Source: an uncultured Holophaga sp.
GTDB lineage: Bacteria; Acidobacteriota; Holophagae; Holophagales; Holophagaceae
Reading direction: 5' to 3'
Length of the DNA: 64,000 nucleotides
Assembly (NCBI GenBank): GCA_963664825.1
Contig: OY761614.1
Coordinates: 2,592,001-2,656,000, forward strand
Shown: one piece after another, positions 44,835-64,000 of the stretch
Numbering within the stretch: the stretch's first letter is position 1
How the letters are laid out: every line of letters starts with the position of its first letter
Position numbers and translations under genes: made by a program
The notes under the pieces: generated by a model
Told to the model about the DNA's origin: nothing
Seen by the model: the letters and a program-made list of their open reading frames with translations, nothing else
Database searches by the model: none

Positions 44835-44926
44835 GGAGGTGTCCTGTGAAGTCCCGAGGGCGTTATAGAGAAAATTGAGTTTACCTCGATCTTCCCGAGT
44901 TCCCTAGGAACCGCCTTGAAGCGGCG

Positions 44927-44946
44927 CACCCCGCTGGCGCGGGGTG
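44927..44946 (-). terminator. Hairpin downstream of the tRNA 3' fragment
   Basis: CACCCCGC-TGGC-GCGGGGTG. Confidence 0.5.
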
Positions 44947-44953
44947 TCTGGGA

Positions 44954-44973
44954 TGGCGGAGGGGGCGGGATTC
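44954..44973 (-). other. tRNA-Ser-like 3'-end fragment (att-like island boundary)
   Basis: Minus strand GAAT-CCCGC-CCCCTCC-G-CCA = T-loop end, 5-nt T-stem, 7-nt acceptor strand, G discriminator, CCA; the rest of the tRNA is absent. Confidence 0.75.
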
Positions 44974-45008
44974 CCCTTGCGGGCCGCACGACTGGCTGCG
45001 TCCGCCGC

Positions 45009-45080
45009 TGTAGCGCGGCAAAATGAATCATCGGGAATCCGTCAGAATGATTGGTAGCTTTCAATCATTTTGACGGATTC
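45009..45080 (+). repeat. Mu-like right end (R1, R2, inverted R3)
   Basis: TGTAGCGCGGCAAAATGAATC; GAATCCGTCAGAATGATTG (45035-53); inverted CAATCATTTTGACGGATTC (45062-80). Confidence 0.8.
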
Positions 45081-45347
45081 TCGGCCTGGAAAGCGCGAGA
45101 GACAAACTGGCTCCCGTTGTCGTGGCGGAGTTTTAACCCGGCGGCGGCTTCTCCCACGCTGCCGAATTCTGATGGCTCTTGTGTCGCTATCACCGCCAAC
45201 CCATGGGGACATACTCGTAAAGTTCATCCCCAATGCGGTTCGAGTAGAACATCCCCCGCCAGAACCGGGGGTTTCCCTAAAAGCAGTGATGCCCGGCCAA
45301 TCTTGGGTGCCGAGGGCTCAAGGGATTACAATCCATCAGAGGCTCAA

Positions 45348-46454
45348 ATGCAGATTGATTTTCACCACGCGACCACCTATGTACTCTCGCGTTTGGCTGG
45401 CTTTAGCCATCCGGAGGCTCGTACCATCGCATATGCGGCGCAATACGTGGACGACGCCACATGTTCGGGCACGGTGTACCTCGAAGGCCGTGCCCCTTTT
45501 GACCGTGTGGCCTCGGCGCACCCGATTGATCCACGGGATGCCGAGTGCCCTCAGGATTTTATGGAAAACGCCAACAACGTGGGCAACTTGGCATCCTGGT
45601 CCCTTTTCCATTTCCTTCCCGGCAATGGCGGGGAAATAGCTGGCCAGGGAATGGATCTTGCCATGGTGGACCGCTTTGTCTGCACTCCGGACAGCCCTGT
45701 CGCCAATGCCATGTGGACTGCCTGCCGGGAGGCCAAGGGTACTCCACATGCCTTATACCGCCTGGGCATCACCGCGCATGTTTATGTCGACACGTGGGCG
45801 CACCAAGGGTTTGTGGGGATGAAACATGCCCGCAACCATGCGCACGACCTTGACCGGCCCGGTTTCAGTGTGAAAGAGCTGCTGGACAACCTTGGATCGC
45901 AGGCATTTCGGGAGTTCCCCTTAGGGCATGCCATGGGTATGACCCTGCCAGACATGCCCTTTCTCACTTGGTCCTATGTCAACTATGATGGGAACAAAAT
46001 CCTTCGCAATAACACTCTCGACTTTCTGGCTGCCAGCCAACGCCTCGTGGAGCAGATGGGGTATTTTCGAGGGGAAGAGGCCCATCTGCAGGAAGCCGAC
46101 CGTGCCGCCCTGGAACATGCCTTCCGGACCATCCAGCACACCGATGGGCGCCAGCGTCACAGGGGATGGTTGGACCTCCTCGCCCACAATCCATTCTCGT
46201 TTGGCATTCTAAGCCCTGTGGAGTTGGAGGAATTGGCATACCCGGACAAAGGTAAGGGCGTTGGATCCTGGAAAGAGGAAGCCCTGGGAACGGCCAGTCT
46301 TGTCAATAACCCTGGCCCTTTCACCTATACCCCAGCTTTTGAAACAAGCCATTGGAAGCTCTTTCATGAAGCTCTCAAGGATCATCGAAATATCGTCTGG
46401 GGAAGCATCTTTCGTGACTTCGGCTTGGTGCCAAGCGTGGCCCTCGAGGCCTGA
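45348..46454 (+). CDS. DUF6765-like protein
   Basis: MQIDFHHATTYVLSRLAGF...IAYAAQYVDD; LGITAHVYVDTWAHQGF. Confidence 0.8.
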   Translation: MQIDFHHATTYVLSRLAGFSHPEARTIAYAAQYVDDATCSGTVYLEGRAPFDRVASAHPIDPRDAECPQDFMENANNVGNLASWSLFHFLPGNGGEIAGQGMDLAMVDRFVCTPDSPVANAMWTACREAKGTPHALYRLGITAHVYVDTWAHQGFVGMKHARNHAHDLDRPGFSVKELLDNLGSQAFREFPLGHAMGMTLPDMPFLTWSYVNYDGNKILRNNTLDFLAASQRLVEQMGYFRGEEAHLQEADRAALEHAFRTIQHTDGRQRHRGWLDLLAHNPFSFGILSPVELEELAYPDKGKGVGSWKEEALGTASLVNNPGPFTYTPAFETSHWKLFHEALKDHRNIVWGSIFRDFGLVPSVALEA

Positions 46455-46540
46455 CGCCAGACGACTTCCACATATGTGCCCTGACCCTCCAAAACCTCAT
46501 CGCAGGGGTGAAGGGCCGCGCAAGGTGAGTCCGACTCCTT

Positions 46541-46759
46541 GTGGTAATAGCCGAGGTAGCCCTTCAGAAACCGCATCAGGTGCTGCTCGTCCAGCACAAT
46601 GACATGGTCGAGTAGCTCACGCCTGAGGGTTTTGATGAAACGCTCGCAGGCACCGTTTTGCCATGGGCTTCGGAAGCTGGCCTGCTTGGGGATGATGCCC
46701 ATAGACTGGATGAACGCCTTCAGGGCACCGAAGATCGTGTCCCGGTCGAAGATCAGATA
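46541..46759 (-). pseudogene. Integrase-core (rve) transposase C-terminal fragment
   Basis: YLIFDRDTIF...SPWQNGACERFIKTLRRELLDHVIV. Confidence 0.85.
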
Positions 46760-46789
46760 CCCTAAAATCCTGAACTACCTAAAAAGTTA

Positions 46790-48119
46790 GGTTCTTCACG
46801 TTTTTCCGGGGAAGGCCGCACGGATCTTAAGGAAGAAGTAGCCCTCATCCCGGTAGCCGTAGGCGATGCGCTTGAGGACTTTGATCTTGTTGTTGATCCC
46901 TTCCTGGACGCTGGTATTGAGCGGCCAGCGGCAATGGGAGAGGATTCCGTCGATCCGCTGGGCGAGATTCTTGGCGAACTTCACGAGGGGCTGGAGTCCA
47001 CTTGAGGTGGCGAGTTCCATCCAGTTCTCCCAGGCCTTCAGAGCCCAGCCCTCCCGCGTGTAGCGCCACAGTGCCTTCAGGGCGTCTTTCAGCACGTAGG
47101 CGGTCATCAGAGGCTGGTTCGCGTCCAATAACTCGTTGAGGCGGACTTTGGCATCCCGATTCGGCAGGTTCTCCCAATTGCCCAGCAGGAGCCACTTCGC
47201 GCCCTTGACGAGCTCCCGCGAGGCCTTGTCGTGCCGGTATCGATTGGCCTCATCCACCCGGATCCGGTCGATGACGTCATGGCCGTACTTTGCCACGACA
47301 TGAAACTGGTCGTAGACGATCTCGGCGTTGGGACAGCGCGCCCGGACTTCGCCTTCGAAGGCCGCCGACATGTCTATGCCCACGGCCTGGATCCGTTTGC
47401 AGCCCTTCTTCCCGATCAGATCGAAGAACGGGCGGATGTCCTCGCGGCCACGCCCTTTCCCGACCCAGAGCACGCGACGCGTTTCCGCATCCGTGATGAC
47501 CGTGGCATAGCTCTGTCCCTTGTGGATGGCGAATTCGTCCATCAGAAGAAGCCTCGCCTTGCTCAGCTTCACGGGCCCAAGTTCTCGGTCCAGGTAAGCC
47601 TTGTCGATCGCCTTCACCGTGCCCCAGTGCAGGTCATAGTGCTCCGCGACCTGTTTGATGGGCATGACCTTGCAAAGCCGCGCCACGCTCGCGGCAAGCC
47701 GGTTCGTGATCCGGGCATGGGGCTCCAACCAGTCCAGGGCTTCCAGCTTCGGGCCGCACCGGGGGCAGGCTACTCGAGCCCGCCACACCACTAGGACTGT
47801 GTCGGCGTCGAACAGCGGAAGGTCGCGGATCTCCCGCTCTGACCAGTCGTGGACGCTCCGCACGAAATGCCCACAACCGCTGCACTTCCGGGGATGATCG
47901 CCGAACCCAAGCAACTCGATCCACACCTCGGCCCGCGGCCCCTTCACCCCGGCTTCGAAGCGCTCCACGATTCCGACGCGTTGCCCTTTCCACCCGCCCA
48001 AGCGGGACATAAGCTCTTTGGTAGGCAGTGGCGGCCTCCTTCATCTCGAGTTCTCGACAAACCCAAGATGCCTGAAATCCGCCACTGCCGACCTACTTCA
48101 CGCAAATCCGCGAAGAACC
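46790..48119 (-). mobile_element. ISL3-family insertion sequence
   Basis: Terminal IRs beginning GGTTCTTC; 8-bp TSD AAAAGTTA (46782-89, 48120-27); empty site seen near 57763-70. Confidence 0.93.
46796..48010 (-). CDS. ISL3 family transposase
   Basis: CxxC...CxxC, MDEFAIHKG, IDMSAAF, YDQFHV, EGINNKIKVLKRIAYGYRD. Confidence 0.95.
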   Translation of the reverse strand: MSRLGGWKGQRVGIVERFEAGVKGPRAEVWIELLGFGDHPRKCSGCGHFVRSVHDWSEREIRDLPLFDADTVLVVWRARVACPRCGPKLEALDWLEPHARITNRLAASVARLCKVMPIKQVAEHYDLHWGTVKAIDKAYLDRELGPVKLSKARLLLMDEFAIHKGQSYATVITDAETRRVLWVGKGRGREDIRPFFDLIGKKGCKRIQAVGIDMSAAFEGEVRARCPNAEIVYDQFHVVAKYGHDVIDRIRVDEANRYRHDKASRELVKGAKWLLLGNWENLPNRDAKVRLNELLDANQPLMTAYVLKDALKALWRYTREGWALKAWENWMELATSSGLQPLVKFAKNLAQRIDGILSHCRWPLNTSVQEGINNKIKVLKRIAYGYRDEGYFFLKIRAAFPGKT

Positions 48120-48148
48120 AAAAGTTAGGGTTTCACTGCGGGGCTCCT

Positions 48149-48406
48149 TCATTCTGGGACCGTCAGCCCACCCGCAATAAGCCCCTCCAGGCTCTTTCGC
48201 TCTACCAGCAGCCTCCGCCCGCCGTTGGGTCCGGGACGCTGCCAGATGGCCACCCTGGGCGCCTTGCGATCACAGCAGGCGGCCCGGAAGGAATCCGGTT
48301 CCATGCCCATGGCGCGGGCGGCGGCCTTGACGGGGATCCAGCCTCCTTCGGAGATTAGCTCTAGGAGATTGGCTGAATCACTGGGCAGACACGGCCCCTG
48401 GCTCAC
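48149..48406 (-). CDS. Small HTH/excisionase-like protein, copy 1
   Basis: WIPVKAAARAMGMEPDSFR; near-identical to 57791-58048. Confidence 0.7.
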   Translation of the reverse strand: MSQGPCLPSDSANLLELISEGGWIPVKAAARAMGMEPDSFRAACCDRKAPRVAIWQRPGPNGGRRLLVERKSLEGLIAGGLTVPE

Positions 48407-48739
48407 TGTTCGTTCCTGGCGAACGGCTGTCCTCATCACTCCTCCTCCACCGCAGGCTTCCCGCTTTTTGGCAGTTTCAGAAAGGGGCCTTGGCCCCTTT
48501 TCTCTGTTTCTCCCCTGCCGTCTGTCCCGGTCGTGAGCCGGTCGATGCGTTCAAGTTTGGCTTCTTTCTGGCGGCTCAAATACAGGCCAAAGGGGAAACA
48601 AGGATGACCGAAGGGAATCCGCCAGGTTCCAGTTTGGACGCTCAATGGATGCGTTCCTGAGGTGGCATTGATGACCAAAGACCGCCCCCGATAGGGGGTG
48701 GGCGTAGGGCACTTCATTCCAAAACGCCAAAAGCTGTCC

Positions 48740-49828
48740 TCATGGTTCGGAACGCGTCAACGACTTTGAGACAGAAAGTTGCCTGAATTCTCGCTTGGAC
48801 CCACCCGCTGCGGAGAGGTGCCGGGGCCATGGACAAGTCTTTGACTTGACCACAGCCCCTTGGAAAACGCTGCGCGTTTCCCACACCTCACAGCAGCCGA
48901 AGGAGATCATCATGCTGCGATTTCCTTTTTTGGGGGATTGATCCACGCCGGACTTGGCAGTGCGGGCGGCGTGGATCTCCTCGGCGCGGCCTTCGTGGAC
49001 GCTGGCGGGCGTCATCATGCCGATGCCGCTGTGCCGATGCAGATGGTTGTACCAATGGAAGTAGCGGCGGCAGAAGCTTCGCGCGTCCTCGATGGAACCG
49101 AACCGCTCCGGGAAGTCGGGGCTGTATTTCAGCGTCTTGAACTGCGATTCGGAATACGGGTTGTCGTCGGAAACGTGAGGCCGACTGTGGCTCTTCGTGA
49201 CCTTCAGGTCGGTGAGGAGGGTGCCCACCGTCTTGGAAACCATGGCTGGGCCTCGGTCCGAATGCAGGGTCAGTTCACCCGGCCGGATGCCATGCTGGAG
49301 GAAGGTCTGGCGGTGGAACTCCCTGGCGAGGTCCTCGTCCTCCCGCTCCTGCACGGTCCAGCCCACGACCAGGCGGCTGAACAGATCGATGGTCACGTAG
49401 AGCTTGAAGCGGCTGCCTCGCACGGGACCCTTGAGATCCGTGATATCCCAGCTCCACACCTGGTTCGGCGCCTGCGCGCAGAGTTCGGGTTTCACATAGA
49501 CCGGATGCCGCGCCTGGTCGCGCCGTTCCTTCACTTCCTGAGCCTCGTCGAGGATTCGGTACATGGTCCGCGACGAGCAGAGATAGCGGCCTTCATCCAT
49601 CAACGTCGCCTGGATCTCGGCGGGCGCACGGTCCACGAAACGCTCCGAATGACACACCTCCAGCACTGCCTGTCGTTCCGAGTCCGAGAGCGCCCGCGGG
49701 GATTTGGGACGAGGCCCGGGTGGACCTTTCGGCTTTCGGCGGCGGTAGAAGGTCGCCCGCGATACGCACAGCAGATCACAGGCCGGCTGAATCCCGATCT
49801 CTTCCGCCAAGGCTACCGCCGCCGTCAT
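48740..49828 (-). CDS. IS3-family transposase OrfB (frameshifted tail)
   Basis: PNQVWSWDIT, LHSDRG, DNPYSESQFKTLK. Confidence 0.9.
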   Translation of the reverse strand: MTAAVALAEEIGIQPACDLLCVSRATFYRRRKPKGPPGPRPKSPRALSDSERQAVLEVCHSERFVDRAPAEIQATLMDEGRYLCSSRTMYRILDEAQEVKERRDQARHPVYVKPELCAQAPNQVWSWDITDLKGPVRGSRFKLYVTIDLFSRLVVGWTVQEREDEDLAREFHRQTFLQHGIRPGELTLHSDRGPAMVSKTVGTLLTDLKVTKSHSRPHVSDDNPYSESQFKTLKYSPDFPERFGSIEDARSFCRRYFHWYNHLHRHSGIGMMTPASVHEGRAEEIHAARTAKSGVDQSPKKGNRSMMISFGCCEVWETRSVFQGAVVKSKTCPWPRHLSAAGGSKREFRQLSVSKSLTRSEP

Positions 49829-50307
49829 TCGCTGTCCTCGTTCTCGAACCGATGGCCCAGCGACAACTTCTCCATCAGTTCGGAGGCTTTTTTTGACATC
49901 TCCAGCATCCACTCGGCCCGCGCCAGCTTGCGTTTCAGGGCCTTGTTCTCCTTCTCCAGTTCCTTGTTCCGGGCCTCGTGCGGATCCCGCGGCTTCGGTC
50001 TCGGCCCTGGTTTTACCGGGTTCAGGGCGCCCAACGCCCCGAGCTCACGCTGCTGCCGCCAACTCGAAAGGTGCGAGGAATAGAGTCCCTCTCGCCGAAG
50101 CAATGCGGCGATCTGGCCCGGCACCGAGCACACATCCACCTCGGCCAGCACCTTCAACTTGTAGCTGGCGCTGAACCGCCGCCGTTTGGGGCGGCTCAAC
50201 TCCACCTCCCCGTTCCCCAACTTCAAGACCTTGCTCATCCCATTTCCTTCCCCGCCCCGACAAAAGACTCTGAAGTGTCTCCTGTCTCAAAAAGCTTGGC
50301 GCGGGGG
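48748..50307 (-). mobile_element. IS3-like insertion sequence with a damaged orfB C-terminus
   Basis: Subterminal inverted motif TGTCTCAAA....TTG(A/G)CGCG at both ends; orfA/orfB; exact tips approximate. Confidence 0.8.
49825..50238 (-). CDS. IS3-family transposase OrfA
   Basis: RRRFSASYKL...LLRREGLYSSHLSSWR; ATGA overlap with orfB. Confidence 0.9.
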   Translation of the reverse strand: MSKVLKLGNGEVELSRPKRRRFSASYKLKVLAEVDVCSVPGQIAALLRREGLYSSHLSSWRQQRELGALGALNPVKPGPRPKPRDPHEARNKELEKENKALKRKLARAEWMLEMSKKASELMEKLSLGHRFENEDSE

Positions 50308-50438
50308 GGTTGGGGTTATCCCCTGATCGAGGATTCCGACCAGATCGCCACCCAGCGCGAGAGTTCGGAAAAACGCCTGGAGAAGACCGGGGCGAACCTG
50401 AAGCCGGAACCGAAGGCGGTCTCGTCGATAAAAGGACC

Positions 50439-53159
50439 CTAAGCTCGGGCAATGGGAGGCATCGATCCTGGGAGTGCAGTTCCTGGCGCTAGGCCCAAAA
50501 CCCCCTGGATTGCATGAGCTAATTCGTGCAACGAATATGGTTTATTTAGCAATTTCACCGCAGGTATGGCCTTGATCCTACAGCTGGTCTCGGCGTCACA
50601 GTGACCCGAGGAAATCAACACCGGGAGTTCTGGGCGCAGCATCCGCAGGCGTACAAGCGTCTCAATACCATTCATTCCAGGCATATTCAGATCCAGGATG
50701 ACCAGATCCACAAGCATCCCGGCTTCCAGCCGCCTTAGGGCCTCCAGACCACTGGAAGCCACTTGGACCTGATGCCCAATCATTTCAAGAAGATCCACGG
50801 CTGATGCTCGGATCAGTTCATCGTCATCCACGATGAGGACCCTGGAGGCTTGGGACCGTTCACCCAGGGTTGGGGTCTGGGCGATTTGGGGAGTTTCTCT
50901 CTTCGCCAGGATGGGAAAACTCAAGGTGATGCAGGTCCCCTCGCCAGGCACACTTCTGATGTCCACCGTGCCGCCATGAGCCTTCACCGTCCCATAGACG
51001 ATAGATAGCCCGAGTCCCGTTCCCTTTCCAGCGGGTTTTGTGGTGAAGAAGGGTTCCATGGCCTTCTCTGCGATTTCACTGGGCATGCCTGCACCGGTAT
51101 CGGTCACAGCGAGTTCGACCAGTTCTTCCCCCCTCTGGCGCGTTTGGAACTTTAGCGAACCTCCCTTGGGCATGGCGTCACAGGCGTTTACGCACAGGTT
51201 CATGAGGACATTGGAGAGAGCGCTGGCTTCTCCCATGATTTCAGGAAGCGGCCTCTGAAGCTCGACCTTGATCTCAATTTTTTTGAAGGTCGTGTGTTTG
51301 AGGAGATCGGCCTCCTGTTCCACCAAGACGTTGAGATCAATGGGCACGGCGTCCTGGACATCCTTGCGGGAGAAATCAGTGAGGCCCTTCACAAGATCTC
51401 GCCCGCGAATCGCGGCTTGAGCGATGACATCGAGTTTGTGAACCTGCCTCTCGTCGAGGCTTGGATCGGCCTGTAATATGTTAGTCATAGCCAAAATGGC
51501 CGCGAGCACATTATTCATGTCATGAGAGACGCCCCCCGCCAAACGGCCCACACTTTCCAATCTTTGGAGATGATTTAGCTCCTGTTCGAGTTGATGTTCC
51601 TTCTCTCGGGCGGCTTTTATTTCTGTGACATCTCGGATGAGATCCACAAGAATGGGCTGCCCACCCAACTGGATGATTTCTGCCGAAAGTAGCGCCTGGC
51701 CGACCTCTCCAGAAGCCCTGCGAAAGGTGAGTTCAAAATTCCGGATTCGCCCCGTTGATGCGAGCCGGTCCATCGCGACCTGCCGCTGTTCAGGCTGGTC
51801 CCAGAGCCCCAGTTCTATGGTCGTTCTGCCCAATACCTGATTGAGTTCGAAACCCGCCAGGGTGAGAAAGGCCCCATTGGCTTCGATGATGACGGTGTCC
51901 TCAACGCGCACCAGGACGATGGGTATCGGCGAAGCGCGAAAGACCGCTGCAAACCGAGCTTCACTGATGCGCAGTTCGGCATCGGCCCGTCGGCGATCCG
52001 TGATATCGGTGTGGATGATCACCAAGCCCCTGCGGCTTCCCGTAAGGGCCGTGGCCGCAAGATGGAACCAGCGCTCCTGATCGGGAGCGGGGCAGGGGTA
52101 TTCGATTTCGAAACGGGGCAGGTCGCCCTTCAGGAGTGCCTGGAACCCTTCCAGACATGTTTTGGCCTCCGTCTCTGAATGGGCGTTGCGGAGGGTCTCG
52201 AAGTAATTCACACCGATACCCGAGGCAAGGGCTTCATCTGCCCCGTTGGCCTGTCCAAAATCCACCCAGGCCCGGTTCACATCGAGGATGCGCCCCTCTT
52301 CATCCAGCACCACGAGACCCGGCCCCATGCTGTCCATCACTGCCCGCAGAAGTGTCTCGGAATCATGGAGGGCTGTCTCTGCGTCCCGTCTCCGCTGAAT
52401 GTCCTCCACGATGCACACAAGATAATCCGGGTCCCCTTGGGGATTCCGCACGAGGGAAACCGAAAGGGAGATCCAGACTTCAGTGCCATTTTTTCGTATA
52501 TTCGGTTTCTCCTCCAGATAGGTCGATTTTTCGCCTTCTAGGAGCAGCCCAATCTTGGCCCGTGTTGAAGCGGCCCATTGAGGAGAACACAGGTCCTGGG
52601 TTCGAAGACACAGCAGCTCCTCTTGGGAGTAGCCCAAAATATCGCATAGGCGCTGATTGACTCGGAGGAAGCGCCCATCCAGGGCGACCTGGGCGATGCC
52701 GATAGCGGCTTGCTCAAAGGTCGCCTGGAAGCGAGCCTCCGAGGCGGCCAGGGCTTGCAAACCTTCGATACTGGCCTTGCGGGTGTGGGCTCCAAGCACG
52801 GCCTGTTGGATGGCAGCCACCAGGCGGCCTGGTCGGTCCTTGAGGATGAAATCCTGGACCCCTAATTTTAAGAGGGCCACGGCTTCTTCTTCCCCAACGC
52901 TCCCGGAGAAGAGGATGACGGGCAACTTGGGATCGTAGGCCTGGATCCGGTTGAGGGTTTCGCGGAAGGGCATTCCTGGTACGGAGTAATCCGATACGAT
53001 GACATCCCAGGGCCCATGTTGGAGTGCCGCATCAAGATCCCCCATGCGATCGATGCGCTGAGCTTCTGCGACGAGCCCTTCCTGTTTTAATAGGTGCAAA
53101 GTCAATAAGTAGTCTGCGGCAGAATCTTCCACGGAAAGCAGGCGAACAGGGGGACGCAT
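50439..53159 (-). CDS. Hybrid kinase REC-PAS(x3)-HisKA-HATPase-REC
   Basis: N-terminal VEDS...SDY receiver, PAS/PAC repeats, GGVSHDMNN, GTGLGL, C-terminal VDDD receiver. Confidence 0.93.
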   Translation of the reverse strand: MRPPVRLLSVEDSAADYLLTLHLLKQEGLVAEAQRIDRMGDLDAALQHGPWDVIVSDYSVPGMPFRETLNRIQAYDPKLPVILFSGSVGEEEAVALLKLGVQDFILKDRPGRLVAAIQQAVLGAHTRKASIEGLQALAASEARFQATFEQAAIGIAQVALDGRFLRVNQRLCDILGYSQEELLCLRTQDLCSPQWAASTRAKIGLLLEGEKSTYLEEKPNIRKNGTEVWISLSVSLVRNPQGDPDYLVCIVEDIQRRRDAETALHDSETLLRAVMDSMGPGLVVLDEEGRILDVNRAWVDFGQANGADEALASGIGVNYFETLRNAHSETEAKTCLEGFQALLKGDLPRFEIEYPCPAPDQERWFHLAATALTGSRRGLVIIHTDITDRRRADAELRISEARFAAVFRASPIPIVLVRVEDTVIIEANGAFLTLAGFELNQVLGRTTIELGLWDQPEQRQVAMDRLASTGRIRNFELTFRRASGEVGQALLSAEIIQLGGQPILVDLIRDVTEIKAAREKEHQLEQELNHLQRLESVGRLAGGVSHDMNNVLAAILAMTNILQADPSLDERQVHKLDVIAQAAIRGRDLVKGLTDFSRKDVQDAVPIDLNVLVEQEADLLKHTTFKKIEIKVELQRPLPEIMGEASALSNVLMNLCVNACDAMPKGGSLKFQTRQRGEELVELAVTDTGAGMPSEIAEKAMEPFFTTKPAGKGTGLGLSIVYGTVKAHGGTVDIRSVPGEGTCITLSFPILAKRETPQIAQTPTLGERSQASRVLIVDDDELIRASAVDLLEMIGHQVQVASSGLEALRRLEAGMLVDLVILDLNMPGMNGIETLVRLRMLRPELPVLISSGHCDAETSCRIKAIPAVKLLNKPYSLHELAHAIQGVLGLAPGTALPGSMPPIARA

Positions 53160-53162
53160 CGT

Positions 53163-53588
53163 TCACTCCGCACTGGGGGCAACGGGTTCGTTGATGATGG
53201 CCCAGTAGAATCCAACCCTTGCAACGGTGTCGGCGAATTCGGAAAAATCCACGGGTTTTCGCACAAAACTATTGGCTCCATGTTTGTAGCTATTTATACG
53301 GTCCTGTTCCTCGTCCGAGGACGTCAAAATCGCCACCGGCAGCAATTTGGTCCTGGGCTCTTCTCGCAGGCGTGCGAGGACTTCCAACCCTCCGATCCGA
53401 GGCAGGCCGAGGTCGAGCATGACAACCACCGGCAGCTCCTGCTTGGGATCAAGCAGGAGATCCAGGGCCTGCTGACCATCCCGGACCACGAGAATGGGAT
53501 TGGCAATATTCGCCTTCCGGAGGGCTCGGAGCGTAAGCATTTCATCCTGGATATTGTCCTCCACCAGGAGGATGGACTTGAGGGTCAT
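53163..53588 (-). CDS. Single-domain response regulator (Rcp1-like)
   Basis: LLVEDN, LDLGLP, LTSS, GANSFVRKP. Confidence 0.93.
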   Translation of the reverse strand: MTLKSILLVEDNIQDEMLTLRALRKANIANPILVVRDGQQALDLLLDPKQELPVVVMLDLGLPRIGGLEVLARLREEPRTKLLPVAILTSSDEEQDRINSYKHGANSFVRKPVDFSEFADTVARVGFYWAIINEPVAPSAE

Positions 53589-56548
53589 GGCTGGGACTCC
53601 GCGGGGCTGGGAAGGGTGAATTCGAAACGGGCGCCTTGATTGGGATGAGCCTCGGCCTGGATGCTTCCACCATGCCTGTGGATGATGCGCTGGACCGTCG
53701 CTAAACCAATGCCAATCCCGGGGAACTCATCCTGGCGGTGAAGGCGCTGAAAGGGTTGGAAGAGCTTGGTGGCGTGAGCCATATCGAACCCTGCGCCATT
53801 GTCCTCAACGACAAACCTTGCCTCTCCCCTCCGGAACCCGATGATGGCGGGATGACGGCCCTCGGTGTATTTCCAGGCGTTCCCGATCAGATTGCGCATC
53901 ATGGCTTCGATCAGCCGCGGATCGCCCCAGGCCTGCAAGTTGGATGCGATTTTCCAGACCACCTCGCGCCTGGGCTCCGAGGCCTCCAGATCCGTCCGAA
54001 TCCGCTCGACGAGGTCTGAAAGGTCCACCCAGCCTCGGTGCAGCTCGCCCCGGGTCACGCGACTCAATTGGAGGATGCCATCGATCAGGTCGGACATGCG
54101 ATTGCTGGCCAGCACGATCTGGTTGAGAAAGTTCTTTTCCGTGTTCTCAAGCTTGGGACTCAGATCCTCCATCAAGGCGAGGCTGAATCCGTTCATCGCG
54201 CGCAGGGGAGCCCTAAGGTCATGGGACACCGCATAAGCAAAGCTCTCGAGTTCGGTGTTGGCGGCTTGGAGTTCGGCGGTTCGCTCTTGAATGCGTTGCT
54301 CGAGGTGGGTGTTCAACTGCTGAATTTCATCTTCCATTCGTTTGGCTTCGGTGATATCTCGTCCCACGACAACAGCTCCCATAATCTCGCCGGAATCGTC
54401 CCGAATGGGCGCAAAGCTGTAACTTGCGACCCAAGACTCGCCGGTATCGCGTCTTCGAAGTTCATATACGGCATTGGAGGCCTTTTCGCCACGCAAGGCC
54501 CGCGGTACGGCCCATTGGGAAATGGGTGTGACTTGACCATCGGGGTAAAACATTTCCAGGCATGTTTGGTACCCGTTAAAGTTTTTTGCGCAGTCCTCTT
54601 TGCTCTCAAATTTGTGGAAAGTGGAAAAGGCCTCGTTGAATTCGATGGCGTTACCTTTCATATCTGAAATAAGCACAGCATCTTGCATGTTTTCCAGGGC
54701 TGCTTCGAGTTTTGCCCTGCTATCCCGAATAGCCGCTTCCGCTAAACGACGTTCAGTGATGTCATACACGATGGTGCATAGCAGTACACGGCTTTGCACC
54801 GGGATGGGTCCGCTGAAAACCTCCACATCGCGAATGCTCCCATCGGCTCGTCGGTGTTGGAAGAAGAAGTGTCGTTGACTTCCTCGATCGGAACACTGCA
54901 TGGCTTCATGGATCTTATCCGCTGGGAGCGTATTGATCTGAGCGATGTTCATTCGCCGAAGCTCATCAGCATCCCAGCCATAGAAATTGATGGCAGCTGG
55001 ATTGGCATCGACAATTGAACCCGTATCTTGGTCTATAATTAGTATTACACTGTAATTGTTATAGAAAAGGCTGCGATAGCGTTCCTCACTCTCGCGGAGT
55101 GCTTCTTCAGCCTGGATTCGCTGGGTGATGTCTTCGGAGAAGATGACGATTCCCGCAACTTGGCCGTCGAGGTCATGCCAGGGGCGGACTTCCCAGCGCA
55201 GCCACTGGACGGTGCCATCGAGGCGCTCAAACCGATCTCGCTCCTTCCGGATGACTTCGCCGCGCAGGCCTCGCTGATGGACCTCACGCCAGAAGGCTGG
55301 AATTTCAGGGAAGATCTCGTAGTGTGAATGTGCCAAGATCTCCCGCTCACCCAGGCCGTAGTCCTCGCGCCATTGGCGGCTGGCAGCGAGGTAGCGCACG
55401 TCCGTGTCGAACATCGCCAGCGACATGGGCGCATGCTCGATGAGGAGCCGCATCCTGGATTCGCCATCCCGCAGGGCGAAATCGATCTGCTTGCGGTCTG
55501 TGATGTCCTGCATCATGCCCCGCAGTGCACAGATCTCCCCATTGGCGTCACGCATGGCTTCACCGCGCGCTTCCGCCCAACCCGTGCCTCCATCTGCGCG
55601 AATGACACGGGTCTCCACGGAATAGGGGACTCCATCCTGGAGAGTTTGTTGAACCGCAGCTGAGAGCCGCACCCAACTCTCCGGCATAAAGTACCCTTCA
55701 ACTTCCTGGAAGTTTAAGGGTTTGCCGGACGGATCCAGGCCGAACATGTGAAACATCTCTCGGGACCAGACCGGGATATCTTGTTTGAAATCCCAGGCCC
55801 AACTGCCAATATGCCCCAGCTGCTGAATGTCTTCCAATAATTCGAGACTCTCGCGCAAGGATTGTTCGGTGGCTTTCCTGGCTCGGATATCTTCGGTCAC
55901 CGCGATAAAGAAACTCGGCCTGCCATTGGGTTTGCGCTGAAGGGCTTCGGTGATCTGCACCCAGCAGGCACTTCCGTCCTTGCAAAGGATTCTCTTGTCC
56001 CTTGTGAAGGTCTGGTTTTCCCCACTGCGCAGGCCTGCTTCGGCCAAGAGGTCCTGCTCCACATCTTCGGGGTGCGTGAGCTCCGATGCTTTGCGTCCGA
56101 TCAATTCGTGAGCGGCATATCCGGTGATATCACACAATCGCTGGTTCACCTCTTCCCAGTAGCCATCAGGTGAGACGAGGGCCATGCCAACAGCTGCTTG
56201 ATTAAATGCGGCATGGAACCTGGAATTAGACCCTTCTAAGGCTCGGTGCAATTGTGCATGAGTTCGACTGAACAAGAAGCCCACGAGGATGAAGAGGGCC
56301 AGCGACCAAAGACTGGAGATGCCCTTCTGAGCCCACTGCATACTCGGCGGAATAAAGAAATACCAGACAATCCAGGCGCTCTGGACCGTGCCCAGCAGGC
56401 CTCCCCAAAGGCCCCCCAAGTGGCCGCAAAAAAAGACTGTCGGATAGAACAAAAACCATACATATGGATGAATCCAGGGCCAGAGCTGCCATTGCAAGGC
56501 CAGTGCAAGCCAGGGCAATAATGCGATCAATACGCGGTGTTTTCGCAT
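53585..56548 (-). CDS. Membrane multi-PAS sensor histidine kinase
   Basis: N-terminal TM bundle, about five PAS/PAC repeats, SHDLRAPLR, DNGAGF, GIGIGLA. Confidence 0.93.
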   Translation of the reverse strand: MRKHRVLIALLPWLALALQWQLWPWIHPYVWFLFYPTVFFCGHLGGLWGGLLGTVQSAWIVWYFFIPPSMQWAQKGISSLWSLALFILVGFLFSRTHAQLHRALEGSNSRFHAAFNQAAVGMALVSPDGYWEEVNQRLCDITGYAAHELIGRKASELTHPEDVEQDLLAEAGLRSGENQTFTRDKRILCKDGSACWVQITEALQRKPNGRPSFFIAVTEDIRARKATEQSLRESLELLEDIQQLGHIGSWAWDFKQDIPVWSREMFHMFGLDPSGKPLNFQEVEGYFMPESWVRLSAAVQQTLQDGVPYSVETRVIRADGGTGWAEARGEAMRDANGEICALRGMMQDITDRKQIDFALRDGESRMRLLIEHAPMSLAMFDTDVRYLAASRQWREDYGLGEREILAHSHYEIFPEIPAFWREVHQRGLRGEVIRKERDRFERLDGTVQWLRWEVRPWHDLDGQVAGIVIFSEDITQRIQAEEALRESEERYRSLFYNNYSVILIIDQDTGSIVDANPAAINFYGWDADELRRMNIAQINTLPADKIHEAMQCSDRGSQRHFFFQHRRADGSIRDVEVFSGPIPVQSRVLLCTIVYDITERRLAEAAIRDSRAKLEAALENMQDAVLISDMKGNAIEFNEAFSTFHKFESKEDCAKNFNGYQTCLEMFYPDGQVTPISQWAVPRALRGEKASNAVYELRRRDTGESWVASYSFAPIRDDSGEIMGAVVVGRDITEAKRMEDEIQQLNTHLEQRIQERTAELQAANTELESFAYAVSHDLRAPLRAMNGFSLALMEDLSPKLENTEKNFLNQIVLASNRMSDLIDGILQLSRVTRGELHRGWVDLSDLVERIRTDLEASEPRREVVWKIASNLQAWGDPRLIEAMMRNLIGNAWKYTEGRHPAIIGFRRGEARFVVEDNGAGFDMAHATKLFQPFQRLHRQDEFPGIGIGLATVQRIIHRHGGSIQAEAHPNQGARFEFTLPSPAESQP

Positions 56549-56756
56549 TTTTTATTTATTAATCCCGGGATTGTATTTATATTAATACTGGTCTTGCTAT
56601 CCGTTTCCTTACGTATCGGACATATTTAGGCCCAGCATGAAAATTCACTCGCGAATCGTCTGATAGAGTCCCATCAAGTAGTGTAAGAGCGATGGCCACA
56701 TAGGTTGGCCACCGGGTCCGTAAGGTGAGTTTGCCGCTTACCGAACGGAGGGACCG

Positions 56757-56935
56757 ATGGCCATGGATAGGGTGTCGGGGCTAGAAGCCCTGAGCAAGGT
56801 GTTGGAGGAAGGGAACAGTGATTTCCTGCGGCGGGTGCTGCTGATGGGGCTGCAGGCGGTGATGGAGTCCGACGTGGCCGGGCTTTGCCAATCGGGTCCA
56901 GGCGAGCGGACACCCTCACGGGAAAATCACCGGGC
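56757..56935 (+). pseudogene. IS256-family transposase N-terminal fragment
   Basis: DFLRRVL...MESDV...GERTPSRENHR then loses similarity. Confidence 0.65.
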
Positions 56936-57236
56936 TTCCAGCCATTCCGCACAGGTGGCCACCATCGCGGCTTCTTCCACCAGACGGTCGGAAACTTGCT
57001 CATCTGTTCCTGGCGTGGGGTGGCCCTAGCCAAAACCTCATCGTAGGGGTGGAGGGCCGCTGCGAAGGCACCGAAGTCCATCGGTCGCGGCCCATCTGAA
57101 GGCCCCGCTCTGAAGGTTTTTGGCTTTCAGGGCGGAGTACCACCTGAGCTTCAACTTCTGAGCATTTTCCGGGCAGGCTCACGCCTGCCCGATCCATGTC
57201 GGGCCAGTAGGACCCTTTACAGATTCAGGCGGCCAT

Positions 57237-57680
57237 TCACCGCTGCACACTGCGCTCCGAAAGGTGAAAACCAAGGCGAAGCAACTCCCCGTGGATTCTC
57301 GGCGCCCCCCAGAGAGGGTTCTCGCGCGCCATGCGGCGAATCAGAACCCGAAGATTCCCGGAGATGGCGGGCCGACCTACCTTGCGTGTCTTCCTGGACT
57401 TCCAGCGCCAGAAGAGACGGAAGCCTGCTCGATGCCAATAGATGACGGTGGCGGGCTTCACCACCATGCAGACCTCCTGCCATCGGGGCCAGATCCGGCT
57501 CAGCATGGCCCAGAACACCCGATCACGGGCTTGGAGGCGGACCTTCCTGGTGCGGCGGAGCAGGACGGCGTTCTGCTGACGAAGGGCCAGATTCTCCTGG
57601 ATCAAGTCCTTGACCCATCCTGTCTCCTTTCCTGGGCAGGGAAGCAGCCATAGCACCATCAATCGAACAAACCATTTCAT
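57237..57680 (-). pseudogene. Integrase-core transposase N-terminal fragment
   Basis: ENLALRQQ, VKPATVIYWHR, GRP, RMARENPLWGAPRIHGEL; truncated. Confidence 0.85.
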
Positions 57681-57790
57681 GAGGACATCATGTCATGGCT
57701 GGCTGAGTCGACGTTGTGGGCAATACCCCGAGTGGCCTTACCCTAAAATCCTGAACCACCTAAAAAGTTAGGGTTTCACTGCGGGCTCCT

Positions 57791-58048
57791 TCATTCTGGG
57801 ACAGTCAGCCCACCCGCAATAAGCTCTTCCAGGCTCTTTCGCTCAACAAGCAGCCTCCGCCCGCCGTTGGGTCCGGGACGCTGCCAGATGGCCACCCTAG
57901 GCGCCTTGCGATCACAGTAGGCGGCCCGGAAGGAATCCGGTTCCATGCCCATGGCGCGGGCGGCGGCCTTCACGGGGATCCAGTTTCCTTCGGAGATTAG
58001 CTCTAGGAGATTGGCTGAATCACTGGGCAGACAGGGTCCCTGGCTCAC
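57791..58048 (-). CDS. Small HTH/excisionase-like protein, copy 2
   Basis: 85 aa; GTGA overlap with the upstream stop. Confidence 0.72.
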   Translation of the reverse strand: MSQGPCLPSDSANLLELISEGNWIPVKAAARAMGMEPDSFRAAYCDRKAPRVAIWQRPGPNGGRRLLVERKSLEELIAGGLTVPE

Positions 58049-59232
58049 TGTTCGTTCCTGGTGAACGGCTGCCCTAGCGCGTTAGCGACGGCCAGGGCGA
58101 AGGCGGAGTCATTGATGAGGAGGTCGTTAACCCGGCTGACTTCCTCCAGGTCGCGGTCCTCCGGGTTGGCGTACAGGGGATCATCCCAGATGACGAAAAC
58201 GTCCAGCGTGTGGCCATCAATAGACCAGCACTGGTAGGGAAGGCTGGGCTTGCGACGCACATAGGGGCCCTTGTCGGTGAGGGCTTTCCGAGTGCCCATG
58301 CGAAGCCCCATGAGGACGGCGGGATCCAGCTCCTGCAGGCGGCGCCGAACGGTCGCCTCGGAAATGGTGTATCCCTTCTGCTGGAGCACGTCGGCGGCGC
58401 CGATGTAGCTGCCCGTGTGGGCGAAGGCGCCACGGATTTCGTCATCCAGGCCCGGGGTTTGATCCGTGCGTCGGGGGCGGCCACAGGCGGAGTGGTGAGG
58501 CTTGAGGGCGTCGCCCGTGGGGTCCTGGGCATACAGCCCCCACCAGCGGCGCAGCGTGTTATCGCTGGGCGCGGATTTGAGGACCTTGAGGATGGCCTGA
58601 CCTTCGGAGGAGGTCCGCAGCCACTGCTGGGCCTCATCCAGGACATAGGAGGGGACTCCGCCCCGAACGGAGCGGCGTTCCCACGGATTCAGGCTGGCCA
58701 ACCTCGGGCGGACAGCCAGATCCAGGAAGCTCAGCCGCGCCTGCTGGATGGCCTGCGCCCGCTGGAGGGCGTCGGGATTGGCCCGGAGTACTACCTGCTG
58801 AGGATCGCGCTTGATCGGCGCGGGGCGGGTGGCCACGGGGCAGGGCTGGATCGAGGCCTGCTGACGCTCCCAGGCTGCGCGGGCGCCGGGATAGAGCGCG
58901 ATAAGGGCCTCCAGATGGATGGAATATTCAGTTCGCCCTTTGTTGGGGCCACTTTGGGTAATGTGAGGGGCTGCGTGCAGGCGCTCGCTCTGAATCGCCT
59001 TCAGGATGGCTTGCCTGGATTTCCCGGTTAGCTCGGCCGCTTCCGTAATCGTGAGCGCGACAACCTGTTCGGAATCTGTCGTTGTGAGCGCATCGCCCAT
59101 AACGCCATCAGAATCTATACTTTTCGAAGGATTTTGGGTCGCGACAACCGGTTGTCGCGTTGTGGCGGGGAGCGTGACAACCGTGACAACTTTGGGTTGT
59201 CGCGAGGGGATATGTTGAGGTGAGATCTGCAT
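58045..59232 (-). pseudogene. Truncated MuA-like transposase fused to the tail of a downstream gene
   Basis: Three HTH-like segments (TITEAAELTGKSRQAI; PSDNTLRRW; ISEATVRRRL) and WSIDGHTLDV first-Asp motif, then abrupt end; start may be ATG 59100. Confidence 0.78.
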
Positions 59233-59240
59233 AATCGCTT

Positions 59241-59573
59241 CTACGCGATTTCTTTCCGGAGCCGCCCCCAGATGCGGTCAGCTTCGAGCCCTAAGGTTTC
59301 TGCCAGGACGTCTTCCACCACCACGTCACGACAGTCCCGGTTGATAACCTGATGGAAGTAAGGGTCCGTGTACCCGTGCGTCTCGGCTAGCACACGGACA
59401 TTGACACCTTTGAGCTTCAGGAGGGCTCGGACGGCTTCCGGTTTCAGGCTGCCATCCAGATTGATGCCATTCGACATGAGATGTTGAACATCCGAAGCCG
59501 TGGCTAGGATGGCTTGGGTGCTTGGAGGCAGGCCATAGGCCGCCCTCTTGCGCGGGGCTTTTTCGGGTAGCAT
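59241..59573 (-). CDS. Ner/Nlp-like DNA-binding protein
   Basis: PEAVRALLKLKGVNVRVLA...EDVLAETLGLEADRIW pattern; divergent from the repressor. Confidence 0.8.
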   Translation of the reverse strand: MLPEKAPRKRAAYGLPPSTQAILATASDVQHLMSNGINLDGSLKPEAVRALLKLKGVNVRVLAETHGYTDPYFHQVINRDCRDVVVEDVLAETLGLEADRIWGRLRKEIA

Positions 59574-59603
59574 TCAAGTCTCCGATTACTTAGTTCACGA
59601 AGT

Positions 59604-60398
59604 GTGAACAGGAGAACAGTAAGTCTCGATAGGAAACACGTCAAGAGGTTGTTGCGCATCGTGAGCAAAGCTGAAATTCAGACTCCAGGCAAAAGGGTTA
59701 GACGCGCAAGGACCGCGCTGGGTAAAACTCTGGAATCTTTTGGCGCGCCAATGGAACGTTCACGTGCTGCGATTTCACGATGGGAGACGGACCAGATAAG
59801 CCTCACTGCTCTCGAAGCGGGAGCCATGGAGCACTTCCACGGCATCTCGGCCGCTTGGATCCTGAGGGGTGAAGAACCGATATGGGTTCCAGCAACCCTA
59901 GCTCCGCTAGATGATGCCGAGACCGAATATCGCCCAGTAATCCCTGGAGCCGCCTCTTGTGGGCCTGGTGGCGAAATTGCAGATCCAGGACCTTCGGCTT
60001 ACCGCCTTCCCTTCCGCAAAGACTTCCTCCAGGAGCTACTCCGCGAATGTGGAGGGGGCACCGCAGCGGATTGCTACGTTGTGGAATGCACAGGTGAGTC
60101 CATGCGTCCAACGCTCCACCCAGGAGACTTGGTGCTGATAAACACCGCGTTGGAACTGCGCGTGGAACCAGAACGGGACGCGCTCTATCTGGTACGCACA
60201 GACCCGACCAGCGTAGATGCCCGAATTAAGCGTGTCCACGTTAAGGATGATCGAATTTGTTTCGCCTCAGACGCCTCTGGATTCAAGACAATCGCGATCA
60301 ATGTGGATGGTATCCCGATCCAGCGCCTCATCCTCGGCCGCGTCTGTTGGATCGCCCGCAGTGTGGTGAAGGACGAGCGCCCAGAGCGGAACTGGTAG
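59604..60398 (+). CDS. Phage CI-type repressor (XRE HTH + S24 peptidase)
   Basis: RAAISRWE...WILRGE; GESMRPTL (Ser) and IKRV (Lys); start may be 59661. Confidence 0.9.
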   Translation: MNRRTVSLDRKHVKRLLRIVSKAEIQTPGKRVRRARTALGKTLESFGAPMERSRAAISRWETDQISLTALEAGAMEHFHGISAAWILRGEEPIWVPATLAPLDDAETEYRPVIPGAASCGPGGEIADPGPSAYRLPFRKDFLQELLRECGGGTAADCYVVECTGESMRPTLHPGDLVLINTALELRVEPERDALYLVRTDPTSVDARIKRVHVKDDRICFASDASGFKTIAINVDGIPIQRLILGRVCWIARSVVKDERPERNW

Positions 60399-60409
60399 GC
60401 GACTCGTTC

Positions 60410-60629
60410 CAACCATATTGACGGATTTAGAAGCCTCGCGCAGGATCCGAAGCTTACCCGCAGGATTCGTGCACCCTTTTTGACGGATTTCCGCTTCGTT
60501 ACGCGTCATCCGTCCCAAACTTATTGACGGATTTTCAGGTCTCTAGATCACCCACAAAGCCCCGCCCTTGTTGGCTTTTAGGCCATGTGCCCGAATCGGT
60601 CGTCATGCGAATTATTTCGACGGATCACA
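60410..60629 (-). repeat. Mu-like left end (L1 plus three internal sites)
   Basis: CA-N7-TGACGGATTT at 60410-28, 60472-90, 60516-34; terminal GAATTATTTCGACGGATCACA 60609-29. Confidence 0.82.
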
Positions 60630-60879
60630 GCGGGATTCCCCGGTGGGCCGCACGACTGGCTGCGCCCGTGTAGCGCGGCAAAATGAATCATCGGGAATCC
60701 GTCAGAATGATTGGTAGCTTTCAATCATTCTGACGGGTTTGGCCTATCGGTCTCAGCTCTCGCGACGGAAGCGGAGTCTATTGTTGAAAAGCCTCTGAAG
60801 GGCTGAACCCTGAAGGCCTCGCTGAGTGCAACATTCTTGGGGCATCCACGGGCGATCATGATGCGCTCTTGGCCTTCTC

Positions 60880-61110
60880 CTGTTTCAAAAGGAGTTCCAC
60901 CTTCGTTTCTGCGATCCAAAGTATGGCCGTGTGGACCTCACAATACAGCCGCGCATCAGTCAGATGCTGGATGGCTTTGGGCTGCACGGTCGTGTCCACG
61001 ATGACCTTCTCGAGACTGCGCTCCGTGATTGTCTTCGTGGTCTTGCCCGCCTCGATGGTGATCTGGAGCAACTTCTCCACACCCTTCTCGTCGATCCGCT
61101 GCCGTGTTAT
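60880..61110 (-). pseudogene. IS5-family transposase fragment
   Basis: RQRIDEKGVEKLL...VIVDTTVQPKAI..LTDARLY. Confidence 0.8.
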
Positions 61111-61148
61111 CGGGCAGGGGTGGATCGGCAGTGCGTGGCGGGAGAATA

Positions 61149-61376
61149 CCTCACCGCAGCCGAAGGAGATCATCATGCTGCGACTTCCTTTTTTGGGGAA
61201 TGATTCCACCCGGGCTTGGGAGTGCAGGCGGCTTGGGGTGTCCCTTGGAAAACAGCTCGGGGTGGGTCTGGAAGGTCTGATTGAACACGGCCTGCCGGGC
61301 CGCGTGGATCTCCTCGGCACGGCCTTCATGGACGCTGGCAGACGTCATCATGCCAATGCCACTGCGCCGGTGCAGG
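61149..61376 (-). pseudogene. IS3-like orfB 3' fragment
   Basis: Homologous to ~48885-49043 (HRRSGIGMMTSASVHEGRAEEIHAAR). Confidence 0.85.
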
Positions 61377-61459: not shown

Positions 61460-61482
61460 AATGCTGGGAAACGAACACAAAA

Positions 61483-61689
61483 TCAAATACAGGCACTATT
61501 TACTGCAATGCTGATACAAACTTGGTGGATTGAATCACAATTAAAGACTGTGTCATTGCAGTACCATGAATTACGATGCTGCGCTTCACATTTGTCTATG
61601 GGTTTGGTATACACACCACCTGCTACTTCCAGGGTATCTGCAGCGTTCAACTGCTTGAGCGTTTCCTTTGAAAGGGTGAGTTTATTCAC
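61483..61689 (-). CDS. RiPP precursor peptide (double-glycine leader, lanthipeptide-like)
   Basis: AGGAGA RBS + GTG; leader MNKLTLSKETLKQLNAADTLEVAGG; 43-aa core with 5 Cys and 6 Ser/Thr. Confidence 0.85.
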   Translation of the reverse strand: MNKLTLSKETLKQLNAADTLEVAGGVYTKPIDKCEAQHRNSWYCNDTVFNCDSIHQVCISIAVNSACI

Positions 61690-61804
61690 GGGTTCTCCTG
61701 GAAAAAGGAAGGGGATTTGAAAATTTGCATCCAACGGATGCGTTGATTGGGGATTCTTCAGTAATTCTCCGCTCTTGCTGGGTTGCGTCAAGTTATTTTG
61801 CCCT

Positions 61805-63871: not shown

Positions 63872-63872
63872 A

Positions 63873-64000
63873 TCACCCACGGCCCGCCTCCATGGCCATA
63901 ACGATCTCTCGGAAGGCGCCTGCCTGTTTGGAGAGTGCAGCATAGGTCCCCTGCTGGGCGATGCGCCCATCCTCCAGCACCAGGATTCGATCCGCGTCCT
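63873..64000 (-). CDS. ABC transporter C-terminus (partial; upstream partner exporter)
   Basis: My translation ...DADRILVLEDGRIAQQGTYAALSKQAGAFREIV...RG*; stop 1 nt before the next ATG. Confidence 0.85.
   Translation of the reverse strand, partial: DADRILVLEDGRIAQQGTYAALSKQAGAFREIVMAMEAGRG

Follow-up and report, generated by a model that had tools for sequence, protein, structure and literature searches.

Mu-like Prophages of the Holophagaceae and Their Integration Behind tRNA Genes: A Tandem Pair Beside tRNA-Ser(TGA)

The window examined here is a whole 64,000-nucleotide stretch (G000:C1:2592001-2656000) of an uncultured Holophaga genome, in which two decayed Mu-like prophages, units 1 and 2, stand in tandem near a tRNA-Ser(TGA) gene. 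G-labels denote genomes, G000 being that of the window, and L-labels with three digits denote loci; L1, R1, L2 and R2 are left and right prophage ends. An earlier note had described the two junctions of the pair, and its sequences and coordinates are borne out on re-reading the window. A shared stretch (44965-45008) runs up to the TGT of R1 at 45009; unit 1 closes with the ACA of L1, whose last base is 60629, and beyond a 39-bp spacer the TGT of unit 2 begins at 60669. The 20-mer reported to lie 4-8 bp from both right ends occurs in the window at 44981-45000 and 60645-60664 only, 8 bp from R1 and 4 bp from R2, and two matches to it were seen in 0 of 100 shuffles. The tRNA-Ser-like fragment of the note (44954-44973) matches the 3′ end of tRNA-Ser(TGA), the gene of which lies outside the window at genome positions 2678076-2678165. 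A short-read contig from run X2, possibly the source sample, covers 60602-62101 with 0 differences; it spans the spacer and the right end fully and the left-end side by 28 letters only, below the 31-letter rule. Misassembly of the 60629/60630 junction is unlikely, and the junctions are confirmed as real parts of two decayed Mu-like prophages of this Holophagaceae genome.

The left end of each unit carries a cI-type repressor, a Ner-like gene and a truncated transposase (Table 1). The homology of the window's MuA ends at about residue 353, right after the DGH motif, and the ATPase gene B is missing. Remnants of virion genes are present in other units of G000, and none were found in the two units of the window; unit 2 retains remnants of GemA and DUF3164. 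Both units carry cargo: unit 1 has two-component genes and unit 2 a lanthipeptide cluster, whose LanB, LanC and HlyD genes lie outside the window and whose short open reading frame (ORF) is a candidate precursor. Insertion sequences account for about 10 kb, and the pair without them measures about 30.8 kb.

Table 1. Features of the tandem pair and its surroundings (window positions unless stated otherwise)
Feature	Position	Strand	Remark
Duplicated tRNA-Ser(TGA) 3′ end (44954-44973) and terminator hairpin, far mini-insert boundary	44911..44973	-	63 bp, 92% to genome 2678034-2678095
First half of ~110-bp structured mini-insert, including 20-mer	44974..45003	.	aligns to intact G007 allele
Target duplication GCCGC	45004..45008	.	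second copy at genome 2677959-2677963
Right end R1 (TGT...), two inverted transposase-binding-like repeats	45009..45079	.	7 related right ends in genome
Cargo gene, DUF6765	45348..46454	+	PF20551
ISL3-family insertion sequence	46787..48119	-	PF01610; near-identical copies elsewhere
Insertion-sequence remnant, rve and HTH_Tnp_1	48746..50308	-	presumably IS3-like
Cargo: two PAS histidine kinases and a response regulator	50439..56548	-	
Truncated MuA-type transposase	58045..59232	-	74% to full-length P0001 residues 8-357
MuA segment of 282 bp, candidate crossover tract	58612..58893	-	99% identical to unit 2
Ner-like regulator	59241..59573	-	HTH_35 below cut-off; family orthologue matches phrog_769
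cI-type repressor, helix-turn-helix (HTH) and S24 peptidase	59604..60398	+	
Left end L1 (...ACA), five ATCCGTC-type repeats	60400..60629	.	4 related left ends in genome
39-bp spacer: T-arm copy and first part of mini-insert	60630..60668	.	allele differs from 44965-45008; 88-95% matches beside tRNA-Ser in G007, G008, G016, G031
Right end R2 of unit 2	60669..60794	.	unit runs 25.3 kb to L2 (genome 2677958)
Unit 2 cargo: start of class I lanthipeptide cluster (short candidate precursor, ABC exporter)	61483..64000	-	

The earlier note saw no 5-bp target duplication around unit 1. This holds for unit 1 alone, but GCCGC brackets the whole pair, lying beside R1 (45009) and beside L2 (genome 2677958) at the two ends of 40,950 bp (genome 2637009-2677958). 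Reading past position 64000, as had been advised, led to this next left end and, 117 bp from it, to the parent tRNA-Ser(TGA). GCCGC is the centre of an 8-bp palindrome, and removal of the pair in silico restores the allele of G007, where the order is tRNA, terminator, inverted T-arm copy, a structured core of ~110 bp, and a direct copy of the tRNA 3′ end with terminator. Four relatives carry this mini-insert intact beside tRNA-Ser (G007, G008, G016 and, with two copies, G031); in G000 its second half, aligned to the G007 allele, follows L2 outside the window. It folds better than shuffled sequences (z = -2.67), an Rfam scan over it returned only tRNA at the gathering score, and a literature search for a published name gave nothing relevant. 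Small structured inserts behind tRNA-Ser and tRNA-Pro form a family (window 44905-45008; L009, L010, L011, L013, L015, L247, L256), with inverted and direct copies of tRNA ends, sometimes in tandem, and no Rfam family.

In the spacer, GGT and CCCG replace the TTGC and TCCG of the first copy, and because it is a different allele the spacer is target DNA captured elsewhere. The same 44-bp patch was hit at three positions and in two alleles in G000, whichever route led to the tandem. Since the tRNA end recurs as a 63-bp direct repeat on either side of the region, in the manner of attL and attR, one may ask whether an integrase island at tRNA-Ser(TGA), or else an assembly artefact, made the repeats. 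However, in G007, G008, G016 and G031 this repeat encloses nothing but the ~110-bp insert, and their intact alleles contradict an island; none of the 14 integrase (PF00589) matches of G000 lies within 2637009-2677958, and the short-read contig supports the junction. We regard such an origin as very improbable.

Relatives of the two units were found in 11 of the 133 family (Holophagaceae) genomes of the comparison panel, at 16 places, and G000 itself has seven right and four left ends of this type. In the relatives, repressor, ner, DDE transposase A and ATPase B are intact at the left end (phrog_310, phrog_296), and the 38.5-kb prophage of G066 is complete, with genes for terminase, Mu portal, head, gp36 and tail. 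The group shows the TG...CA ends, the transposase-binding repeats and the 5-bp duplication of Mu-like elements. Its transposases form two clades with ~25% identity between them; the one that includes the window's transposase is ~25% identical to the D3112-like clade, and the G021 transposase has 41% identity to D3112 A over 69% of its length. MuB is short, ~250 residues, and is followed by two conserved genes, gene 3 (phrog_2030) and gene 4 (phrog_2119). In G094 one contig comprises the entire element, and its short flanks do not match. An end-motif scan of viral contigs gave 0 matches, and in a sample of the phylum 7 of 401 genomes matched, four of them outside the family, weakly and with no upstream tRNA.

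The left ends of this group cluster behind tRNA genes. Among the 24 that were mapped, 17 are linked to tRNA-Ser, -Pro, -Arg or -Lys, 16 of them lying 35-237 bp behind a tRNA 3′ end or a copy of it and the seventeenth, the window's L1, inside the Ser 3′-end copy. In all 16 downstream cases the left end faces the tRNA. They follow Ser-TGA in G000 (117 bp), G091 (91 bp) and G019 (nested ends at 35/47/70 bp, counted once); Ser-GCT in G019 (100 bp), G066 (78 bp), L186 (164 bp) and G093 (226 bp); Ser copies or Ser-like ends in G082 (92 bp), G137 (a copy, 124 bp) and L187 (an end, 86 bp); Pro-GGG in G091 (120 bp) and G132 (237 bp); Pro-CGG in G091 (120 bp) and G021 (103 bp); Arg-CCG in G004 (124 bp); and Lys-CTT in G019 (189 bp). 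Six tRNA types and differing distances are involved, which points to separate insertion events. The count leaves aside G025 C72, G118 C54, L077 and L157, which have too little flank to be assessed, L171/L129, which lies 208 bp behind a tRNA-end copy and is without this group's ner, and L192-L194, duplicates of G021, G004 and G137.

In G000 the chance share of oriented positions within 200 bp behind a tRNA is ~0.16%, and for the first 19 ends, 15 of them linked, P is ~1e-16 even at a prior share of 5%, a value overstated by kinship. Of the elements beside tRNAs or in whole-phage contigs, seven have both ends mapped, and a 5-bp duplication is present in five of them (G000, G066 with 38.5 kb, G021 with 44.7 kb, and two G091 elements of 18.7 and 12.3 kb), and the flanks of G091a and G094 are unmatched. 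With 17 of 24 ends tRNA-linked, target choice is not near-random as it is in Mu, which separates the group from Mu, though not from the wider family, which includes biased members. The 20-mer singled out by the earlier note was rejected as the targeting signal: its pattern, that of the mini-insert, occurs in 5 of the 133 genomes, and other members sit at Ser, Pro, Arg and Lys sites devoid of it. The idea of site targeting by a Mu-like element stands with respect to the tRNA link, and not with respect to the 20-mer.

At L032:7461-7520 (G019:C113), three nested left ends (12 bp, 23 bp and full) lie 35, 47 and 70 bp behind tRNA-Ser(TGA), and a second prophage stands behind the divergent tRNA-Ser(GCT). 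This points to repeated insertion into older ends, against strict target immunity.

It could be argued that insertion is random and that prophages behind tRNAs just survive, the site being harmless and an existing island hotspot. All the data do come from surviving, mostly decayed elements, seven of the 24 ends lie elsewhere, and E. coli Mu, which avoids the mature tRNA sequence, actively enters pre-tRNA leader and trailer DNA (PMC7350765, in the part available). However, harmless intergenic DNA far exceeds tRNA trailers, the value of P is as given above (overstated by kinship), the left end faces the tRNA in every linked case, and the nested G019 ends and the three G000 junctions within 44 bp represent repeated hits, so that we find this explanation hard to sustain. 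Another option is that what is recognized is not the tRNA sequence but DNA rich in hairpins, such as terminators and tRNA-linked mini-inserts, or a host protein bound to it, in which case no phage selector would be needed. Recognition of this kind has been proposed for Pseudomonas phage Ab30, whose hotspots at REP/BIME repeats lie 55-61 bp from a palindromic REP-like motif and receive ~5% of replicative insertions (PMC5977238, in the part available). The reconstructed sites in G000, G066, G091c and G021 fall within predicted hairpins of tRNA-linked inserts, GCCGC centres a palindrome, and the distances to the tRNA vary. Terminator hairpins, however, are found genome-wide and yet the insertions sit at tRNAs; G019, G004 and G091b have no such insert, and Ser versus Pro sites track the type of MuB and gene 3. 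Hairpin recognition is accordingly judged unlikely.

Some observations weigh against targeting behind tRNA genes. Seven of the 24 left ends are unlinked (G000 759706, G000 3459590, G082 C83 at 1107 bp, G094 and three in G010), and among the last five, found by end sequence alone, two are linked and three are not. The distance from tRNA to end is not fixed, the data represent surviving lysogens only, and kin are not independent. G000 also lacks intact copies of MuA, MuB, gene 3 and gene 4, so that the mechanism has to be deduced from relatives. Targeting behind tRNA genes is nevertheless well supported by the genome positions, and we think it probable that this Mu-like phage group of the Holophagaceae steers its integration 35-240 bp behind tRNA genes, the tandem history given below included. 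On insertion, the left (repressor) end would be placed towards the tRNA, the tRNA left intact and a 5-bp duplication made. The bias would act at integration on infection, lytic copying being untargeted and producing the off-target copies. Such copies would fit untargeted lytic transposition, as the left arm of the one at genome 3459590 is 99.9% identical to L1.

Beyond the family, linkage to tRNAs is weaker. Among 115 distant transposase loci from viral and metagenome contigs, a weak control as most are trimmed at the prophage edge, the one upstream tRNA found with ARAGORN belongs to L186, a group member. Thirteen proteobacterial D3112-like loci give a mixed picture that is not used as support: one has a tRNA-Ser pointing at the element, two a tRNA-Asn more than 3 kb upstream of MuA, two a reversed tRNA or fragment within less than 200 bp, two less than 100 bp of flank, and six none. 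Among the proteobacterial relatives L196:583-750, L197:775-1050, L198 and L199, left ends lie less than 200 bp from a reversed tRNA or fragment, and two Psychrobacter elements occupy the same locus near tRNA-Asn.

Other ends in G000 show varied arrangements. At G000:C1:745374-759706 (L003), right ends at 745374 and 748181 stand without left ends, with terminase and portal remnants, and point towards tRNA-Ser(CGA); a 4.9-kb element with the duplication CAGAC lies 183 bp from this tRNA, on its 5′ side. At G000:C1:3459590-3462880 (L006), a left and a right end share GCTAG and run in the same direction with an IS66 copy between them, probably an inversion mediated by the insertion sequence, and an RHS-repeat gene of 2310 codons is next after the right end. 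A lone right end at G000:C1:2988665 (L007) abuts a truncated integrase gene and has 159 bp identical to the end at 754766. A stretch of 464 bp (96.5%) is common to G000:C1:754037-754500 and 2678336-2678796, after tRNA-Ser(CGA) and tRNA-Ser(GCT), and is probably the terminal part of an integrative island that uses both Ser tRNAs.

The targeting gene suggested by the earlier note, TniQ-like or integrase, was sought without success: TniQ (PF06527) was not found in G000, G066 or G091, its matches in G021 and G019 lie outside the mapped prophages, and no integrase falls inside the pair. The N-terminal HTH of MuA is disfavored as selector, since in two units that occupy one site it varies together with cI and ner. 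Attention turns to MuB and the genes behind it. The model of gene 3 consists of two winged-helix-like halves (predicted local distance difference test, pLDDT, 84), and its fold matches, examined for a tyrosine-recombinase core-binding domain of the TnsF type, cover residues 1-74 only. Gene 4 has an HTH resembling the MuB N-terminal domain (Z 7.0, root-mean-square deviation 2.0, 57 aligned) and four invariant cysteines. TniQ is absent from the fold matches listed for either protein, by which a TniQ fold is not excluded.

A comparison of relatives suggests that target class follows MuB and gene 3 rather than the transposase, in one contrast. G091a (Pro) and G091b (Ser) have 88% identity in MuA, 53% in MuB and 44% in gene 3, whereas G091a and G021, both at Pro, have only 48% identity in MuA, yet are grouped in the trees of MuB (100/99) and gene 3 (98/97). 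Ser-site elements of both transposase clades have MuB proteins 59-70% alike, G137 being an exception (51-55%). This signal amounts to essentially one swap. Gene 3 is also not sufficient, a tRNA being upstream in 3 of 18 alphaproteobacterial gene 3 prophages analysed (20 fetched), and given its presence in prophages away from tRNAs too, any role as selector could only be one of variable specificity. For two MuB, ATP and gene 3 the predicted complex scores 0.57, the best of three controls scoring 0.00; at ≤0.60, 18 of 157 solved complexes got to the mark, as did both of the two passing mismatches among 215. The runs agree in at least 73% of contacts with a partner pLDDT of at least 77, which gives weak support to binding between MuB and gene 3. 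Our tentative candidate for the selector is the MuB ATPase together with the tandem winged-helix protein encoded directly after it (phrog_2030). A further possibility, to be taken seriously, is that homing is TniQ-free, a swappable module of the two proteins reading the 3′ part of particular tRNA genes and sending the ~40-kb phage behind them at infection; a phage addressed to tRNA-Ser would then be redirected to tRNA-Pro by exchange of the module.

Units 1 and 2 are 90-95% alike at their ends and ~60-70% in cI, ner and the MuA N-terminus, after which comes the nearly identical MuA segment of Table 1. Differing in repressor, ner and A N-terminus only, they resemble the heteroimmune pair Mu and D108. 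The outer ends can belong to one element, X, because they share the duplication, and the inner ends to another, Y, because they are joined by target DNA of a foreign allele. In the route that we find somewhat more convincing, likely though not settled, a resident prophage X (L2...R1) would have entered the tRNA-Ser mini-insert at GCCGC, and a relative Y with a different repressor would have hit the same patch in another allele. The ends of Y would have been joined via 39 bp of the patch, by local transposition or by pop-out from a tandem, and the left-spacer-right circle would have recombined into X by a single crossover through the shared MuA, yielding R1..L1-spacer-R2..L2 with the duplication of X outside. 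Both units, each with its cargo, would have decayed afterwards. The unmatched flanks of G091a, inside a tRNA-Pro insert, look like what such a pop-out would leave in the chromosome.

The copy at 3459590 joins an L1-type left arm to unit-2 middle sequence, as an element Y predicts, but the right end paired with it is only 88% like R2, which weakens the circle. A possible, if less probable, history is that the prophages were inserted 39 bp apart in a donor and that the pair moved as a composite via R1 and L2 into the same site in this lineage. It would also account for the outer duplication and for a spacer from another allele, and as the pair falls within the 38.5-44.7 kb of intact relatives one head could perhaps carry it. 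The arm-to-middle join at 3459590, however, would then need an extra pop-out step, and repeated targeting would still be required. Recombination of a circle into a resident relative thus remains our preferred route. Targeting and integration of such a circle, posed by the earlier note as alternatives, are both supported and complement each other.

The prophages share with Mu and the D3112 group the TG...CA ends with repeats, the 5-bp duplication, the repressor-ner-A-B order, and the Mu-type portal and gp36; they differ in clustering behind tRNA genes in one orientation and in a short MuB with a separate gene 4 that resembles the MuB N-terminal domain. The comparisons that follow draw on those parts of the cited papers that were available. 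Site-biased Mu-like phages have already been published. Citromicrobium phiA integrates within a 40-bp zone (n = 24) with a 5-bp duplication and replicates genome-wide (PMC12486242), which is similar as regards the confined zone and the duplication, but the zone is in a hypothetical host gene and not behind tRNAs, and the available text names no selector. Ab30 is alike in having hotspots a short distance from a palindromic repeat, and differs in that the motifs are REP/BIME; the word "tRNA" is absent from the main text of the paper, which also reports that D3112 lysogens are rarely auxotrophic (PMC5977238). Mu-like JBD24 inserted in many genes (PMC8284892), and Desulfovibrio prophages occur at tRNAs, some with Mu-like structural genes, transposition not being shown in the text available (PMC12724379). 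Rhodobacter phage RcapMu has a gene 3 homologue (31% over 83%) annotated as a transcriptional regulator.

The earlier note had also compared the arrangement with Tn7-like elements and integrase islands; the units are decayed Mu-like prophages and belong to neither kind. Tn7-like CRISPR-associated transposons (CASTs; I-B2, I-D) home to tRNA genes via TnsD/TniQ (PMC10293859). The likeness consists of oriented insertion downstream of an intact tRNA, reuse of sites, and an AAA+ ATPase gene followed by a DNA-binding gene. However, CyCAST keeps a fixed 30-33 nt (PMC10293859) as opposed to 35-237 bp, and the Holophagaceae elements lack TniQ (G000, G066, G091) and are phages with head and tail genes. 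The CAST-homing work notes a conserved gene beside MuB and, in the text available, assigns it no role (PMC10293859; PMC11656645). Unlike tyrosine-integrase tRNA islands, the pair has no integrase, and the repeat of the tRNA end is part of the mini-insert. In the literature searched, mostly outside subscription papers and supplements, no account was found of Mu-like phages that home to the DNA behind tRNA genes.

Some further features of the window may be mentioned. The lanthipeptide cluster is prophage cargo (window 61483-64000; L001:3873-14470), and a 95% copy of a 1.85-kb part of it is present at genome 1672267-1674120. A 314-bp direct repeat (95%; 48120-48433 and 57763-58075) lies at the MuA cut point and contains a small ORF matching no Pfam family. 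The gene at 44118-44834 has a 300-bp internal duplication (90%, window 44134-44739) and no Pfam family above cut-off. ARAGORN predicts a 94-nt tRNA-Trp at 20197-20290, which may be spurious, a normal tRNA-Trp being present elsewhere in the genome.

Mu serves as the standard example of random insertion, and guidance to tRNA genes by a protein is known from Tn7-like elements, which use TniQ/TnsD. If the present reading is true, TniQ-free homing by Mu-like phages would be a separate route to safe-site targeting, and the conserved, unexplained gene beside MuB would gain a concrete candidate role. Why lysogeny by some transposable phages seldom damages genes, a question of longer standing, would become testable, and an integration tool for payloads of ~40 kb is suggested. 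For the genomes concerned, such homing would explain how tRNA-linked cargo islands grow without an integrase.

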